Shown: in pieces, positions 4,976 to 11,389 of the stretch
Numbering within the stretch: position 1 is the stretch's first letter
How the letters are laid out: every line of letters starts with the position of its first letter
UHGV virus genome: UHGV-1739098
DNA length: 15,336 nucleotides
From: a virus
Strand: one strand, 5' to 3'
Position numbers and translations under genes: made by a program
Notes under the pieces: model-generated
What the model saw: only the letters and a program-made list of their open reading frames with translations
The model's database searches: none
What the model was told of the DNA's origin: nothing

Positions 4976-5272
4976 ATGGAATTTCTGATAGTTTTTGTTG
5001 TTGTTTTGGTCATCATTCTTTTTGTTTTGCTAAGCATTAGCAAAAAGCTATCTCAAATGATTGAACATAGCTCTAATCGCGCAAAAGAAGAAGAGCATAT
5101 AATTGATATAAAAGAGATTCTCTCTGATATAAAAATCACATTAGATGAAATAAAATACACAACAGATCTAATTGAACAGTATAAAATACCAACCCCAAAC
5201 GAGAGAAAAGCAATAGATCAATATCGTATTGACTTAGAAATCGACGAAATGCTAAGCAAAAGAAAAGACTAA
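4976..5272 (+). CDS. Hypothetical 98-aa membrane protein (N-terminal transmembrane helix plus charged helical tail); moron at the rex-equivalent position
   Basis: GGAGGG Shine-Dalgarno 5 nt before the ATG. N-terminus EFLIVFVVVLVIILFVLLSI. Visibly very AT-rich compared with cI. Followed by a terminator. Confidence 0.6.
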   Translation: MEFLIVFVVVLVIILFVLLSISKKLSQMIEHSSNRAKEEEHIIDIKEILSDIKITLDEIKYTTDLIEQYKIPTPNERKAIDQYRIDLEIDEMLSKRKD

Positions 5273-7020: not shown

Positions 7021-7115
7021 GCACTGTGTATTCATTCCAACGAGTGAATACACGGAGCAATGTCGCTCGTAACTAAACAGGAGCCGACTTGTTCTGATTA
7101 TTGGAAATCTTCTTT

Positions 7116-7142
7116 GCCCTCCAGTGTGAGGGCATTCTTTTT
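7116..7142 (+). terminator. Candidate intrinsic terminator immediately upstream of the 324-aa gene
   Basis: GCCCTC-cagtgt-GAGGGC stem-loop followed by attcttttt. Confidence 0.5.
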
Positions 7143-7155
7143 GCCTGGAGGAGAT

Positions 7156-8130
7156 ATGAGTAACGCATTGCAAATAAGCATTATTAAAACCGACGCTGGT
7201 AAATGTTTTATCACTGATTGCACAGCAAAGGACGGTTATCACTACCAGTACCATCAATCTAAAATTGCTGATCTCCTATTTGACGGAGTTAAACCCAAAG
7301 CCAGCTTTCACAAAAACTGGTTTGAAATTGAACATTACCCTGAAAAGGTTGAGAGAATTATCTCTGGTGAAAGAATTAATGTTCGCTACGAGCTTAAAGA
7401 TGCTGAACTTGAGAGTAAAAAATACCCTTTGACACTTAGTTACAATGAGCGTGACGCAGTGGACGAGGATATCAGAGGCTCTCTTTATGAATACAAATAC
7501 GATACTGCACCTGATTACACCTCTCCAGTTGATGTTGAATTCACATTAGTATGTGAGGTTGAAAATTTTCGTGACGCACCAGAATTTAATTACTCTGCAA
7601 TTAGGCAGGTTGAGTTCCGGGAGGAGAGGTACGTTGTAAAAAACATAAACGTAAAACACTCTCTTGTTGACTGCATCATAATTCCTGAGCCTTTGCGGGC
7701 TAACAGCCCTTGTGAAATTTCATCAAAAGAAATGTATGACATTGTACGCCAGCACGTAAAAGATAACATCGACAACAAACTGGCTAGAATAACAAGTGAT
7801 TACGCATTTTGCTTTACCGTTAAAAAAATAATACCGCTCCTTAAGCCTCACACATATTCATATCAGGATATTTTTGCCAGAACCAAGAAGCAAAGAGCAA
7901 AGTTGCACTTTAAGACTGACACGGTGAAGGAAATTGAAATTTTCCAAATGACACATGACCAAGAAAATTACAAAGGTTATACGGCGATTAAAGGGTTCAA
8001 AGCCAATAACGAATGGGAGCTAAAGGAAATGATTGATAACTTCCTTACGACGCTTATGGATACCATTCACGCGCCAATAGAGCAATGCTCATGCTGTGGC
8101 GGTACAGGCTACACGCAAGACATCAAATAG
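7156..8130 (+). CDS. Hypothetical 324-aa protein, AT-rich, insulated by terminators; function unknown
   Basis: Strong GGAGGA Shine-Dalgarno 4-9 nt before the ATG at 7156. The ORF track's upstream extension to 7060 runs through the terminator and is unlikely. Ends with a CSCCGGTGY motif. No recognisable catalytic motif. Confidence 0.6.
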   Translation: MSNALQISIIKTDAGKCFITDCTAKDGYHYQYHQSKIADLLFDGVKPKASFHKNWFEIEHYPEKVERIISGERINVRYELKDAELESKKYPLTLSYNERDAVDEDIRGSLYEYKYDTAPDYTSPVDVEFTLVCEVENFRDAPEFNYSAIRQVEFREERYVVKNINVKHSLVDCIIIPEPLRANSPCEISSKEMYDIVRQHVKDNIDNKLARITSDYAFCFTVKKIIPLLKPHTYSYQDIFARTKKQRAKLHFKTDTVKEIEIFQMTHDQENYKGYTAIKGFKANNEWELKEMIDNFLTTLMDTIHAPIEQCSCCGGTGYTQDIK

Positions 8131-8602: not shown

Positions 8603-8891
8603 TAAGCGTGAAATATCGCAAATAATCGCAAGTTTTACTGATGAAGATTACGAACGAATCAACAGTGAAGTTGATCGCCTCTGCAAACGTTGCGACCCAA
8701 TAAGCGAAATGCTTCGCTCATATAAGCCAGATGAACACACTAAGGACGCTATCGACTGGCTGGAAGATGATGACTGTAACTATCAGGAAAAAGCCGCTGA
8801 ATGGTTCTGGGATGCAATAACAGAAAGAGTTAAGGCTGAATATGCCTTCGCAATATTCAAACGCAGACACATTTTTGGAGAAGCAGCATGA
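8580..8891 (+). CDS. Hypothetical 103-aa protein upstream of recT
   Basis: AGGAG Shine-Dalgarno. ATGA overlap with recT. Confidence 0.5.
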   Translation: MMILTLNDKREISQIIASFTDEDYERINSEVDRLCKRCDPISEMLRSYKPDEHTKDAIDWLEDDDCNYQEKAAEWFWDAITERVKAEYAFAIFKRRHIFGEAA

Positions 8892-9790
8892 GCAATATCG
8901 TTGAATTCGTTAAACAGCAAGAGCAGTTATTCTGCGGAGCATTGACTGAACAGACGGTGACATGGGCTAAGGAAAGCCAGTTTGCAATTCAGTATTTCCA
9001 GAAAAATGATTACCTGGCTAAAACGGCACTGGCAAATCCAACCAGCGCACAGAACGCCATCATCAATGTTGCGGCGATCGGCATCACCTTAAACCCGGCC
9101 AGCAAACTTGCTTATCTGGTTCCGCGCGACGGCATGGTGTGCCTTGATATCAGTTACATGGGATTACTTCATCTTGCGCAATCGACAGGATCAATTAAGT
9201 GGGGGCAATGCAAACTGGTGTACTCAAACGACACCTATGAATCAAATGGCCTTGATTCAGCACCAACCCACAAATACAACGCATTTGGTGAGCGAGGCTC
9301 TATTGTTGGAGGTTATTGCACGGTTAAAACAGCAGATGGTGACTACCTGACTGAAGAAATGAGTCTGGCAGAAATTAAAGCTGTGGAAGCAACGAGCAAG
9401 GCAAAGATTGGACCGTGGAAAACATTCTGGGAAGAGATGGCGCGTAAAACAATAGTTAAACGTGCCAGCAAATACTGGCCTAAAGCCCAGCGACTGGATA
9501 ATGCCATTCACCTGCTTAACGAAGATGAAGGTATGCATCAGGAACCAGTTATGCCGCACAAATCAGAGGAAGATATCCGCGAAGATGAACGGAAACGCCA
9601 GCAGGAAATAATGGATAAAGCACAACTTCTTTGTGATGAAATGGCTCAGGCAGAAAACATGGATGATTTGAAGCGATATTTTGCAGAAGCATATCGCCTG
9701 ACATCTGGAATGAAATTGCAGCAGAACGTACAAGCCATTTACATAGAATGCAAAGCGAAACTGGAGGTTGCTAGTGAGCAAACTGTATGA
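8888..9790 (+). CDS. recT: RecT-family single-strand annealing recombinase
   Basis: GPWKTFWEEMARKTIVKRASKYWP matches the conserved RecT segment GPWVTHWEEMAKKTAIRRLFKYLP of E. coli RecT. Size and position in the pL operon fit. Confidence 0.85.
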   Translation: MSNIVEFVKQQEQLFCGALTEQTVTWAKESQFAIQYFQKNDYLAKTALANPTSAQNAIINVAAIGITLNPASKLAYLVPRDGMVCLDISYMGLLHLAQSTGSIKWGQCKLVYSNDTYESNGLDSAPTHKYNAFGERGSIVGGYCTVKTADGDYLTEEMSLAEIKAVEATSKAKIGPWKTFWEEMARKTIVKRASKYWPKAQRLDNAIHLLNEDEGMHQEPVMPHKSEEDIREDERKRQQEIMDKAQLLCDEMAQAENMDDLKRYFAEAYRLTSGMKLQQNVQAIYIECKAKLEVASEQTV

Positions 9791-10256
9791 AATTGCCAAT
9801 GAATACGCAAAATTGATGGATTCAGATTTAGAACCAGAGATGATTGCTGACACAATAGAAGGCATGGAAGGAGAATTTACCGATAAAATAGAGCAACTTC
9901 TTGCCATTATTAAAAATGAATCTGGTTATGCTGAACGCCTCAAGGAAGAGGCAAAGTCACTAAATGAGCGAGCCGCAGTAATTCAAAATAAGATTAACAG
10001 CATTATGGCGTATATAGCGTCATCGCTTGAAATGGTTGGCAAGAAAAAGATTCGAGCAGGTATTCACCAGGTAACAATCCGCAAACCGTCAGAAACTGTA
10101 GAAATCTTCGACTCAAGCGCCCTTCCTCCTGAATACGTTGAGTTCGAAACGACAATTAAAGCCGACAAACTGGCAATCAAACAACAACTAAAAGCAGGAA
10201 TAAATATCCCCGGTGCTCAACTCAAAGTTGGGAAACCTTCACTTCTTATCAAATAA
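9774..10256 (+). CDS. Gp157-family protein (often found with RecT)
   Basis: N-terminal KLYEIANEYAKLMD ... IADTIEGMEGEF pattern and about 160 aa, typical of Sipho_Gp157 as I recall. Likely a GTG start at 9774 after GGAGG; the ORF track gives TTG at 9768. Confidence 0.6.
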   Translation: MSKLYEIANEYAKLMDSDLEPEMIADTIEGMEGEFTDKIEQLLAIIKNESGYAERLKEEAKSLNERAAVIQNKINSIMAYIASSLEMVGKKKIRAGIHQVTIRKPSETVEIFDSSALPPEYVEFETTIKADKLAIKQQLKAGINIPGAQLKVGKPSLLIK

Positions 10257-10267
10257 CGGTATCGCCT

Positions 10268-10582
10268 ATGAAAAAGACTCCATGGGAGAAATGGGAAGTC
10301 GATTTCTTGCGCGAAGTAGCGGCGACAATGCCAGTTGAAGTTATCGCTGAAAAACTGGAAAGGACTGAAAAAGCAGTAATGGCGAAAGCAACAAGGATTG
10401 GCGCTGACATTGTTAGCCGACTTCGTGGAAGACGATGGACAAGAGCCGAAGTATCACTTTTCGGTAAGTTCTCCGCAGAAGAAATAGCAATTGCAACCTG
10501 CCGCTCAATTTATTCAGTAAGGGCTATGCGATACAAGCTAAAAAAACTCGATGAAGAAAGAGCAGGCATACAAATAAATTAA
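10268..10582 (+). CDS. Hypothetical 104-aa protein with two tandem W-x-EV-containing helical repeats (possible DNA-binding)
   Basis: Repeat 1 [25 protein letters not shown] and repeat 2 [20 protein letters not shown]. Confidence 0.45.
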
Positions 10583-10598
10583 CAAAGAGGAATTTACC

Positions 10599-10763
10599 AT
10601 GAGAGGACTTGCATACAATCCCGGCATTCTTCCGGCAGAAATGATTATTCGCCAACGCGTAAAGCCAATGCCATCGAGAGAGGAATTGCTTAAGAGAAAT
10701 TCTTTTCCGTCAGTAAATCAAAACAAATATCTGAATGCGATGTTGCGGAGTGGGAAAAAATGA
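10599..10763 (+). CDS. Hypothetical 54-aa protein
   Basis: AAAGAGG Shine-Dalgarno 8 nt upstream. ATGA overlap with the next ORF. Not in the ORF track. Confidence 0.35.
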
Positions 10764-11389
10764 AACAAATGTCACTAATTGAGATGGATGGATTTCTGAA
10801 AGGTAAATGCATCCCACGAGATTTAAAGGTTAACGAAACAAACGCTGAATATCTGGTGCGTAAGTTCGGTGAACTTGAATCAAAACTAGAAACGGCGTTG
10901 CGGGAGTGTCGTTCTGCTGGAATCACGATTGATAACCTTGATGCCAAGTGCGCGGCGCTGGCAGCGGAGAGTGCGGTGATGAAGGCGGGACATTCATATT
11001 TCTCATATGGCTCTGAGCATAATTTCGAATGGCACAAAACTGCTGAGGAAGCTATCGAATCGGCTGAGGCTGCAATTGACGACTATCGCGGTGATGCTTG
11101 CGATGGATGGAGCGAAGAGGTCGATAGTATTTGCTGGGGAATCATCATGCAATCGTCAACGAATGTTGGCGAACGACCACGCAACGAGGATGACTGTTGC
11201 GATCCTGCGATCGATACGATTTGCGATTATGCGCTTCTGCCTAATATCGAAACCCCAGCCACCGATGCTTTTCTGGCTGAAGTACGGGCGCAGGGCGTGG
11301 AGATGTTTGCTGACCATCTGTTGTGCCCAGACCTTGATGACACTATCCGTGACTTTGCTGCCCAGCTTCGCAAAGGAGGCAACCAGTGA
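10760..11389 (+). CDS. Hypothetical 209-aa protein (ea-region)
   Basis: ORF-track ORF coupled to its neighbours on both sides. Acidic and Cys-containing. Confidence 0.5.

Follow-up and report, generated by a model that had tools for sequence, protein, structure and literature searches.

The 104-amino-acid (aa) protein encoded at positions 10268..10582 of a 15,336-nucleotide (nt) stretch of virus genome UHGV-1739098 (the whole of this stretch being 'the window') is predicted to comprise two tandem tri-helical helix-turn-helix (HTH) domains of the Myb/GcrA type, and its gene consistently occupies the distal edge of phage recombination modules that are themselves interchangeable. The protein probably binds double-stranded DNA (dsDNA), perhaps as an accessory factor. 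The gene is referred to here as the target, and its parts are listed below.

10268..10582, + strand: coding sequence, including the stop codon, of the 104-aa tandem-HTH protein (open reading frame (ORF) and translation)
10280..10405, + strand: predicted HTH domain 1, residues 5-46 (AlphaFold2 helices 8-17, 23-30 and 34-43)
10406..10432, + strand: inter-domain linker, residues 47-55, DIVSRLRGR (basic; AlphaFold2 assigns no helix)
10433..10561, + strand: predicted HTH domain 2, residues 56-98 (AlphaFold2 helices 59-66, 70-77 and 81-98)

Results

The target is a conserved gene

The gene starts at ATG 10268, runs for 104 codons and stops at TAA 10580-10582, the same coordinates and peptide as in an earlier, sequence-only reading of this DNA. 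Its product (isoelectric point (pI) 9.9 overall, with a single cysteine, C78, and the chain ending at residue 104) matches gp39 of coliphage HK140 with 100% identity, and copies 97-99% identical were found in mEpX1, Gally, Kapi1, Dewey, Louie and others. The gene was present in 299/5,426 complete E. coli genomes, every copy being chromosomal and named 'hypothetical protein' by PGAP. Comparison with the 90%-identical gene of Salmonella phage SEN22 gave a dS of 0.89 and a dN of 0.062 (dN/dS 0.07); the gene is genuine and evolves under purifying selection. It belongs to a catalogued phage family, and public records already hold an identical protein as well as its PHROG label.

The internal duplication is real

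The sequence-only reading had described two tandem W-x-EV helical repeats. Pairwise BLOSUM62 local alignment of residues 1-52 with residues 53-104 scored 21 against a shuffle mean of 21.2 (z = -0.06, with 2461/5000 shuffles scoring at least as high as the real alignment), and the repeat therefore cannot be claimed from the target sequence alone. A search for direct and inverted DNA repeats across the gene returned only short chance matches, none of them at the expected spacing. Three independent lines of evidence nevertheless establish the duplication. Profiles of the two repeats, built from 11 homologues, were aligned by hhalign in the HTH register (P = 2.5e-4), and repeat 2 aligned with the third repeat of 151-155-aa relatives (P = 7.7e-11). 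The AlphaFold2 (AF2) model contains two equivalent three-helix units (residues 8-17/23-30/34-43 and 59-66/70-77/81-98). Finally, an exhaustive family-profile search returned 3,277 cluster representatives at E <= 1e-3, many of them proteins of 300-900 aa with 4-10 tandem matches; relatives overall carried from 3 to >10 copies. The duplication thus stands, although the strict motif does not: what both repeats share in register is W-x3-E (W6..E10 and W57..E61, all conserved in the family), W9 is an additional tryptophan, and the valines of the proposed W-x-EV are not conserved.

Each repeat is predicted to be a Myb/GcrA-type HTH domain

The AF2 model of the target (predicted local distance difference test score, pLDDT, 82.7) has two tri-helical HTH domains, and each repeat is accordingly predicted, at the level of a model, to be a tri-helical domain of Myb/GcrA type. 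The alignments behind this model and that of P22 Abc1 discussed below were shallow (11 and 8 sequences, respectively), with predicted template modelling scores (pTM) of about 0.47-0.49, and pLDDT falls to 71-77 in the residue blocks 41-60 around the linker. Domain 1 is near-neutral (pI 6.2 for residues 1-50) and, in its helix-2/turn, bears the most conserved motif of the family, I26-A-E-K-L-E-R32; its invariant columns among homologues of 31-55% identity, from which this motif was also scored, are W6, E10, F13, I26, K29, L30 and R32. Domain 2 together with the linker is strongly basic (pI 10.6 for residues 51-104) and carries the motif W57-T-x2-E61 ... T-C/G-R-S-I-x-S-V-R.

The top structural match of the model was the DNA-binding domain of GcrA, followed by the Tc3 transposase bipartite domain, Cef1/Cdc5, SNAPc4, Reb1, c-Myb R1/R2, homeodomains and sigma region 4. 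Foldseek comparison with the BFVD viral models returned numerous uncharacterised proteins of ~100 aa from phages, of which a few bear the name GcrA or Myb, while a sequence search of the PDB with the family profile gave only a weak match of domain 1, to the C-terminal HTH of NarL (E = 0.0023). The GcrA domain contacts DNA and reads N6-methyladenine (m6A) (PMC5887438). When domain 1 was mapped by eye onto the DNA-contact residues listed in that study, five contacts appeared to be kept (W6 = W3, T33 = T32, K40 = K39, R43 = R42 and G45 = G44) and the floor of the methyl pocket to be conservatively replaced (M38 for I37, A39 for G38). The sequence-only reading had taken the protein for a small HTH-like DNA or RNA binder. 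The predicted fold does have a nucleic-acid-binding architecture, and that reading is further supported by relatives that pass the Pfam Myb_DNA-binding and GcrA thresholds and by the founder of phrog_323, T5 D5, which is annotated as DNA-binding.

The target belongs to the D5-like family

Against phrog_323 ('transcriptional regulator, D5-like', which is also the RefSeq/PHROG name for the target) the protein scored E = 2.2e-20 and 74.5 bits, with residues 2-99 on profile positions 145-269 of 319. Against phrog_11492 it scored E = 4.5e-23, covering profile positions 4-93 of 154 only: the alignment shows the third repeat to be absent, and the full profile, with that repeat and the C-terminal NERNGWD tail, is not matched. 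T5 D5 (T5.118, 255 aa; E = 1.2e-71 against phrog_323) is the founder of phrog_323 and the source of its name; its record carries the annotation of a DNA-binding protein needed for both replication and late transcription. D5 has been described as an HTH protein that triggers the type IX retron-Kva2, AlphaFold3 predicting binding to msdDNA (preprint 10.64898/2026.07.11.737809).

Arrays in which the repeat unit recurs 4-10 times or more were also found, joined to an SNF2-type helicase (P0053) or to LAGLIDADG_3 endonuclease domains (P0102, P0147, P0174). These remote array-type relatives pass the Pfam thresholds of Myb_DNA-binding, Myb_DNA-bind_6 and GcrA (P0053 against Myb_DNA-binding, 2e-41), and from these matches and the helicase and endonuclease fusions it follows that the unit is used as a DNA-targeting module. 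The target itself had no match to Pfam Myb_DNA-binding (PF00249) even at E <= 10. Pfam HTH_12 (residues 70-97; 20.9 bits against a 21.4-bit cut-off) was rejected as an identity, being a generic HTH signal only, as was a sigma-70 factor, the name that NCBI gives to Abc1 homologues: HTH matches were all sub-threshold, regions 2 and 3 are lacking, and TIGR02937 gave no match. A literature search on 'D5-like' regulators, and on GcrA with phage methyltransferases, returned nothing on the target family.

The target lies at a mosaic border in an early operon

The window corresponds to the early part of a lambdoid/P22-like prophage, with a DnaB-type helicase, cII, cro-like, cI-like, N, a Gad1 homologue, RecT, Gp157, the target, DUF2737, EaE, Ea22, DUF551, xis and int. 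The genes that flank the target are as follows.

8888..9790, + strand: RecT single-strand annealing protein, upstream recombination module (Pfam RecT 1.6e-32)
9768..10256, + strand: Sipho_Gp157 gene directly upstream of the target (Pfam PF05565 7.3e-37, phrog_253 1.5e-51)
10599..10763, + strand: DUF2737, P22 orf56 homologue, directly downstream of the target (Pfam PF10930 3.4e-32)
10760-11389: EaE-like gene after DUF2737

The gene at 9768-10256 is named 'Mu Gam-like end protection' in RefSeq/PHROGs, but its Phage_Mu_Gam match is sub-threshold (E = 0.011); the ORF starts at TTG 9768, and deposited starts lie later (160 aa in HK140, 146 aa in mEpX1).

Gaps of only 11 nt upstream and 16 nt downstream separate the target from its neighbours, and a scan for promoters and terminators around it gave counts equal to shuffle expectation. 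The target is therefore a gene of the early-left (pL) operon, and an autonomous, self-regulated cassette was rejected on the same counts. With DUF2737 and then EaE directly downstream, the sequence-only reading placed the gene correctly at the head of the ea-gene block, although 'distal edge of the recombination module' describes its position more informatively.

Both borders of the gene were surveyed, in loci that are not phylogenetically independent. Among 80 IMG/VR loci with a near-identical copy of the target (L012-L091), Gp157 lay upstream in 80/80 and DUF2737 downstream, next or next-but-one, in 79/80. The upstream border is mosaic: in SEN22 the 90%-identical target follows a DUF3799 nuclease and a 189-aa protein, not RecT-Gp157. 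So is the downstream border. Among 80 loci (L181-L260) whose DUF2737 is 98-100% identical to that of the window (10599-10763), Abc2 directly preceded DUF2737 in all 77 with a callable upstream ORF, and a target homologue was found in 0/80. Homologues always follow a recombination module, of four types: RecT-Gp157; DUF3799 nuclease and 189-aa protein; Gam, 167-aa protein and YqaJ; and YqaJ alone. The scan of genome contigs yielded 6 loci only and the first scan of viral contigs near-identical copies only, the diversity of the sample coming from the three-repeat alignment.

Several further features of these loci were recorded. An extra gene of 93 aa lies between the target and DUF2737 in 37/80 of the near-identical loci (L012-L091) and is absent from the window (10583-10598); it resembles HK140 gp38 (RefSeq 'replication initiation protein', described as similar to Sf6 gene 24) and had no BLASTP similarity to Abc2. 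In the alternative recombination modules upstream of target homologues (L180, SEN22, 1111-2501; L004, 3611-5001; L007, 3881-4384), the 189-aa protein that follows the DUF3799 nuclease and the 167-aa protein between Gam and YqaJ have no Pfam match and are candidates for unclassified annealing or single-strand DNA-binding (SSB) proteins. Within the window, a 356-aa ORF (7060-8130, + strand) in the pL operon between N and RecT matches Pfam Gad1 (PF25705, E = 9.2e-68, residues 38-353), and on this similarity the prophage appears to carry an anti-Gabija gene (Gabija anti-defense 1); PADLOC returned no match for this ORF. Directly downstream of the cI-like repressor gene, a 98-aa ORF (4976-5272, + strand) with a strongly hydrophobic N-terminus, FLIVFVVVLVIILFVLL, and no Pfam match may encode a membrane protein expressed in the lysogen, for example for superinfection exclusion.

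A three-repeat sister clade precedes DNA methyltransferase genes

The closest relatives outside the 104-aa clade are the phrog_11492 proteins (151-155 aa, for example P0031), which share 50-63% identity with the target over repeats 1-2, in the same order, and like it are encoded at the end of a recombination module. Unlike the target, they have a third repeat and a conserved C-terminal N-x-E-R-N-G-W-D tail, and their genes precede a DNA methyltransferase gene in 63/78 loci, where the target precedes DUF2737. These counts come from 80 IMG/VR loci (L098-L177; 58-91% identity to P0031), the downstream gene being scored in 78 and its class verified with Pfam on one representative per BLASTP cluster.

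C5 DNA_methylase: 46/78 loci (some, including the representative, fused to a D12 N6-adenine methyltransferase)
MT-A70: 11/78 loci
N6_N4_Mtase: 6/78 loci
DndB: 2/78 loci
Other: 13/78 loci

The downstream gene mostly overlaps the HTH gene by 4 nt, and the upstream gene is a YqaJ exonuclease in 50/76 loci. Elsewhere in the family the gene after the homologue encodes a Dam-type methyltransferase (PF05869) in L007, L095 and L010/L011 and a C5 or N6_N4 enzyme in L092-L094, so that the slot after the conserved HTH gene holds DNA-modification genes of at least four unrelated Pfam classes. Slot and GcrA-like fold together suggest, as a lead only, a functional link between the HTH gene and the methyltransferase, as its regulator, partner or reader. 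This sister-clade association does not account for what the target gene does. Regular expressions for methyltransferase and nuclease motifs matched no fusion to the repeats among the top 143 relatives; Pfam then confirmed LAGLIDADG_3 fusions, but no HTH-methyltransferase fusion came to light. No report of an association between the three-repeat clade and methyltransferases was found in the papers searched.

The C5-methyltransferase genes beside the HTH gene contain a long ORF in a second frame, of 228-309 aa (MSWLFSQALAEEYSVDTS...), at 5447-6202 in L093, 1056-1742 in L094 and 5972-6901 in L010, and also in L100. Its start (~100 aa visible) is conserved in L093, L094 and L100, with no visible similarity in the L010 ORF. 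An overlapping gene, a programmed frameshift and a split methyltransferase are possible explanations.

The target is an analogue of P22 Abc1

A 99%-identical copy of the target, GALLYPH_26 of phage Gally, is annotated 'Anti-RecBCD protein 1, similar to P22 Abc1'. P22 Abc1 (P22gp35, 94 aa) itself matches phrog_323 (E = 1.3e-23), and its C-terminal half resembles the repeat unit (RWSDDEDKRM...VAKILGRSEESVKSRL); its AF2 model (pLDDT 81.3) has helices at 8-14/20-26/31-40 and 54-65/70-77/81-93. Direct comparison gave far less: BLASTP of the target against Abc1 produced no alignment even at E <= 100, hhalign aligned one repeat with a probability of 15% (P = 0.0017), and the hidden Markov model A1 scored 9.7 bits against Abc1. 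Filing the target as Abc1 was therefore rejected, homology being demonstrable by neither BLASTP nor hhalign. The target is a structural and positional analogue within the same remote-homology cluster, not a demonstrable orthologue, and the label in Gally rests on position and fold, without demonstrable sequence homology.

Abc1 or Abc2 accompanied a target homologue in 0/166 loci (Abc2 being absent from all 166), and the reverse search gave 0/80. In the loci sampled around DUF2737 (L181-L260), Abc1 was directly upstream of Abc2 in only 3/77 and is therefore no regular partner of Abc2. The gene in that place, assigned by eye, was SSB-like (157 aa) in 32 loci, DEDD-type exonuclease-like (182 aa) in 18, a 195-aa protein in 9, an E. 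coli-type SSB (171 aa) in 8 and an HNH-like protein in 6.

In a published screen, Abc1, which has an HTH, triggered cell death dependent on the P4 satellite when expressed alone (bioRxiv 10.1101/2023.04.06.535777; PMC12373910). It also sensitised several wild E. coli hosts to phages, and the authors of the screen suggest interference with P4 transcriptional regulation (same sources).

Discussion

Proposed role

We consider it reasonably probable that the target is an early-expressed, monomeric, bipartite dsDNA-binding accessory factor bordering the recombination and protection module, in the manner of Abc1 or of a miniature D5. The gene would be transcribed within the N-antiterminated pL operon, and the protein would form two three-helix HTH domains of the Myb/GcrA type that fold independently, with a short basic linker between them. 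It would bind dsDNA as a bipartite monomer, each domain placing its helix 3 in a major groove as Myb R2R3 and the bipartite domain of Tc3 do; most of the affinity may come from the linker and the basic domain 2, and a conserved contact surface (IAEKLER with T33, K40 and R43) from domain 1. In this way it could modulate phage DNA transactions, rather than the lysis-lysogeny switch. The fold is a prediction; that the ligand is DNA rather than RNA or protein, and how it would be bound, we infer, and the biological role is speculative.

Several points weigh against this proposal. Pfam and NCBIfam scans of the protein found nothing above threshold (nor did PADLOC), and no experiment on the protein or a close homologue was found in the literature. 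The relative orientation of the two domains is undefined in the model (pTM 0.47, 11-sequence alignment). In the by-eye alignment the base-reading residues of GcrA are replaced (E34 for R33, K35 for N34, T42 for H41), and with these gone the non-basic domain 1 (pI 6.2) could instead be a SANT-like protein-binding module. The mosaic joints on both sides mean that the target is not tied to one recombination system, which weakens a role as a Rec accessory. Lastly, the closest named analogue, Abc1, is of unknown function, its anti-RecBCD mechanism never having been shown (PMC9836394, PMC12315714).

Rival readings

Four other readings, which are not mutually exclusive, were weighed. It is possible, though unlikely, that the target is a sequence-specific transcription factor that reprograms genes of the host, a co-resident prophage or a satellite (for example surface-polysaccharide or defence loci) early in infection. 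The RefSeq/PHROG name would suit such a role, as would the need for T5 D5 in late transcription and early shut-off, the P4-dependent death and host sensitisation caused by Abc1 together with its suggested interference with P4 transcription (bioRxiv 10.1101/2023.04.06.535777; PMC12373910), and weak sequence similarity to NarL/LuxR-type HTHs; however, neither a local promoter or operator nor any intergenic space is present at the gene, bacterial repressors and activators are not typically monomers that have two dissimilar HTH domains but lack a dimerisation or effector domain, the predicted helix-3 base-contact positions vary widely in the family, and no target motif was identified. We find it quite unlikely that the target is an orthologue of P22 Abc1, or equals it in function, and joins the Gp157/MuGam-like protein encoded upstream in neutralising or redirecting RecBCD. 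The Gally annotation, the common match to phrog_323, the shared slot between recombinase and DUF2737-EaE and the failure of the target ever to co-occur with Abc1/Abc2 all favour it. Yet the BLASTP null and the single-repeat profile match argue otherwise, Abc1 rarely adjoins even Abc2, its anti-RecBCD mechanism has never been shown (PMC9836394), and an earlier positional 'Abc1' call has already proved wrong, the HK620 gene so named encoding an SSB (PMC5928155).

The GcrA likeness raises the idea that the target works as a reader or partner in phage DNA modification, binding DNA according to methylation state or regulating or assisting a phage methyltransferase. That GcrA's DNA-binding domain, an m6A reader (PMC5887438), is the top structural match, that the sister clade precedes a methyltransferase in 63/78 loci and DndB in 2 more, that Dam genes (PF05869) follow homologues in L007, L095 and L010/L011, and that the hydrophobic floor of the methyl pocket (I37/G38) is matched by M38/A39 would all fit; but the window and 79/80 near-identical loci have DUF2737 downstream and no methyltransferase, the third repeat is missing, the pocket wall R33/N34 has become E34/K35, and fusions to a methyltransferase are absent from the top 143 relatives. 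Moreover, 4-nt overlaps are usual throughout the operon, and hence are no evidence of coupling, and a conserved 'methyltransferase slot' beside a conserved flanking gene could explain the association. For the target we judge this reading improbable. A wider conjecture, which we likewise think doubtful but slightly less so, is that the phrog_11492/phrog_323 HTH-repeat proteins are a phage counterpart of GcrA, readers of modification state or partners that accompany methyltransferase or Dnd-type genes and couple modification to recombination-dependent replication, the 104-aa form being a methyltransferase-independent derivative and possibly an abortive-infection trigger like T5 D5 and P22 Abc1. 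Highly improbable, finally, is a SANT-like protein adaptor or RNA binder whose acidic-to-neutral domain 1 might dock on a host or phage protein, for example a sigma factor, RecT or RecBCD: although domain 1 has a pI of 6.2 and bears the family's most conserved surface motif, and NCBI calls Abc1 homologues 'sigma-70 family' from a region-4-like HTH, domain 2 is strongly basic, as is the linker, the domains that match best in structure are DNA-bound, the same unit builds DNA-targeting arrays in endonuclease and helicase fusions, and without sigma region 2 the protein cannot be a sigma factor.

Significance

On its own the target matters little, the identical HK140 gp39 having been deposited already. 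What the analysis adds is that the 'D5-like transcriptional regulator' label rests on a tandem Myb/GcrA-type HTH, and that the superfamily has two characterised members in phage-host conflict, T5 D5, the reported retron trigger, and P22 Abc1, which aids recombination and triggers P4-dependent death. Both of these phrog_323 members are reported triggers of abortive infection (10.64898/2026.07.11.737809; 10.1101/2023.04.06.535777), and the 104-aa protein could be sensed similarly. The methyltransferase association of the sister clade, if functional, would indicate an accessory factor for phage DNA modification and offer a handle on an Abc1-like role.

Comparison with known systems

In the two AF2 models the target resembles Abc1 in its similar size and in its two tri-helical HTH domains at almost equal residue positions, and in sequence in a C-terminal domain with W-x3-E ... 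G/C-R-S-x-x-S-V, whereas the N-terminal domain of Abc1 lacks the W/E motif. Within the pL operon both genes lie between the recombinase and DUF2737(orf56)-EaE (erf-abc1-abc2-orf56(DUF2737)-eaE in P22; recT-gp157-[target]-DUF2737-eaE in the window), although Abc1 follows Erf and precedes abc2 in P22, while the target follows Gp157 and never precedes abc2. With T5 D5, which also matches phrog_323, the target shares the unit W/F-T-P-[DE]-E ... IA ... G-[KR]-x-x-x-x-[VI]-x-x-K; D5, however, is 2.5 times larger, with more repeats, and comes from a virulent phage whose replication and late transcription depend on it; its gene lies in a cluster of replication genes.

Like GcrA of Caulobacter crescentus (PDB 5yiu), the target has a predicted N-terminal HTH domain of the GcrA fold, and the repeat arrays of its remote relatives pass the Pfam GcrA (PF07750) threshold. 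It differs in having two HTH domains rather than one, in lacking the C-terminal sigma70-interacting CCCH zinc domain, in its altered pocket (R33/N34/I37/G38 to E34/K35/M38/A39) and in a host that is not an alphaproteobacterium. Tandem tri-helical HTH units with a short linker are likewise the arrangement of Myb R2R3 and the Tc3 transposase, which also have in common with the target a helix-1 signature W-[ST]-x-E-E and a G-R-[ST] turn ahead of helix 3; in contrast to the three regularly spaced tryptophans of a Myb repeat, the target conserves one in each (W6, W57), and its repeat 1 has L-E-R-T in place of G-R-T.

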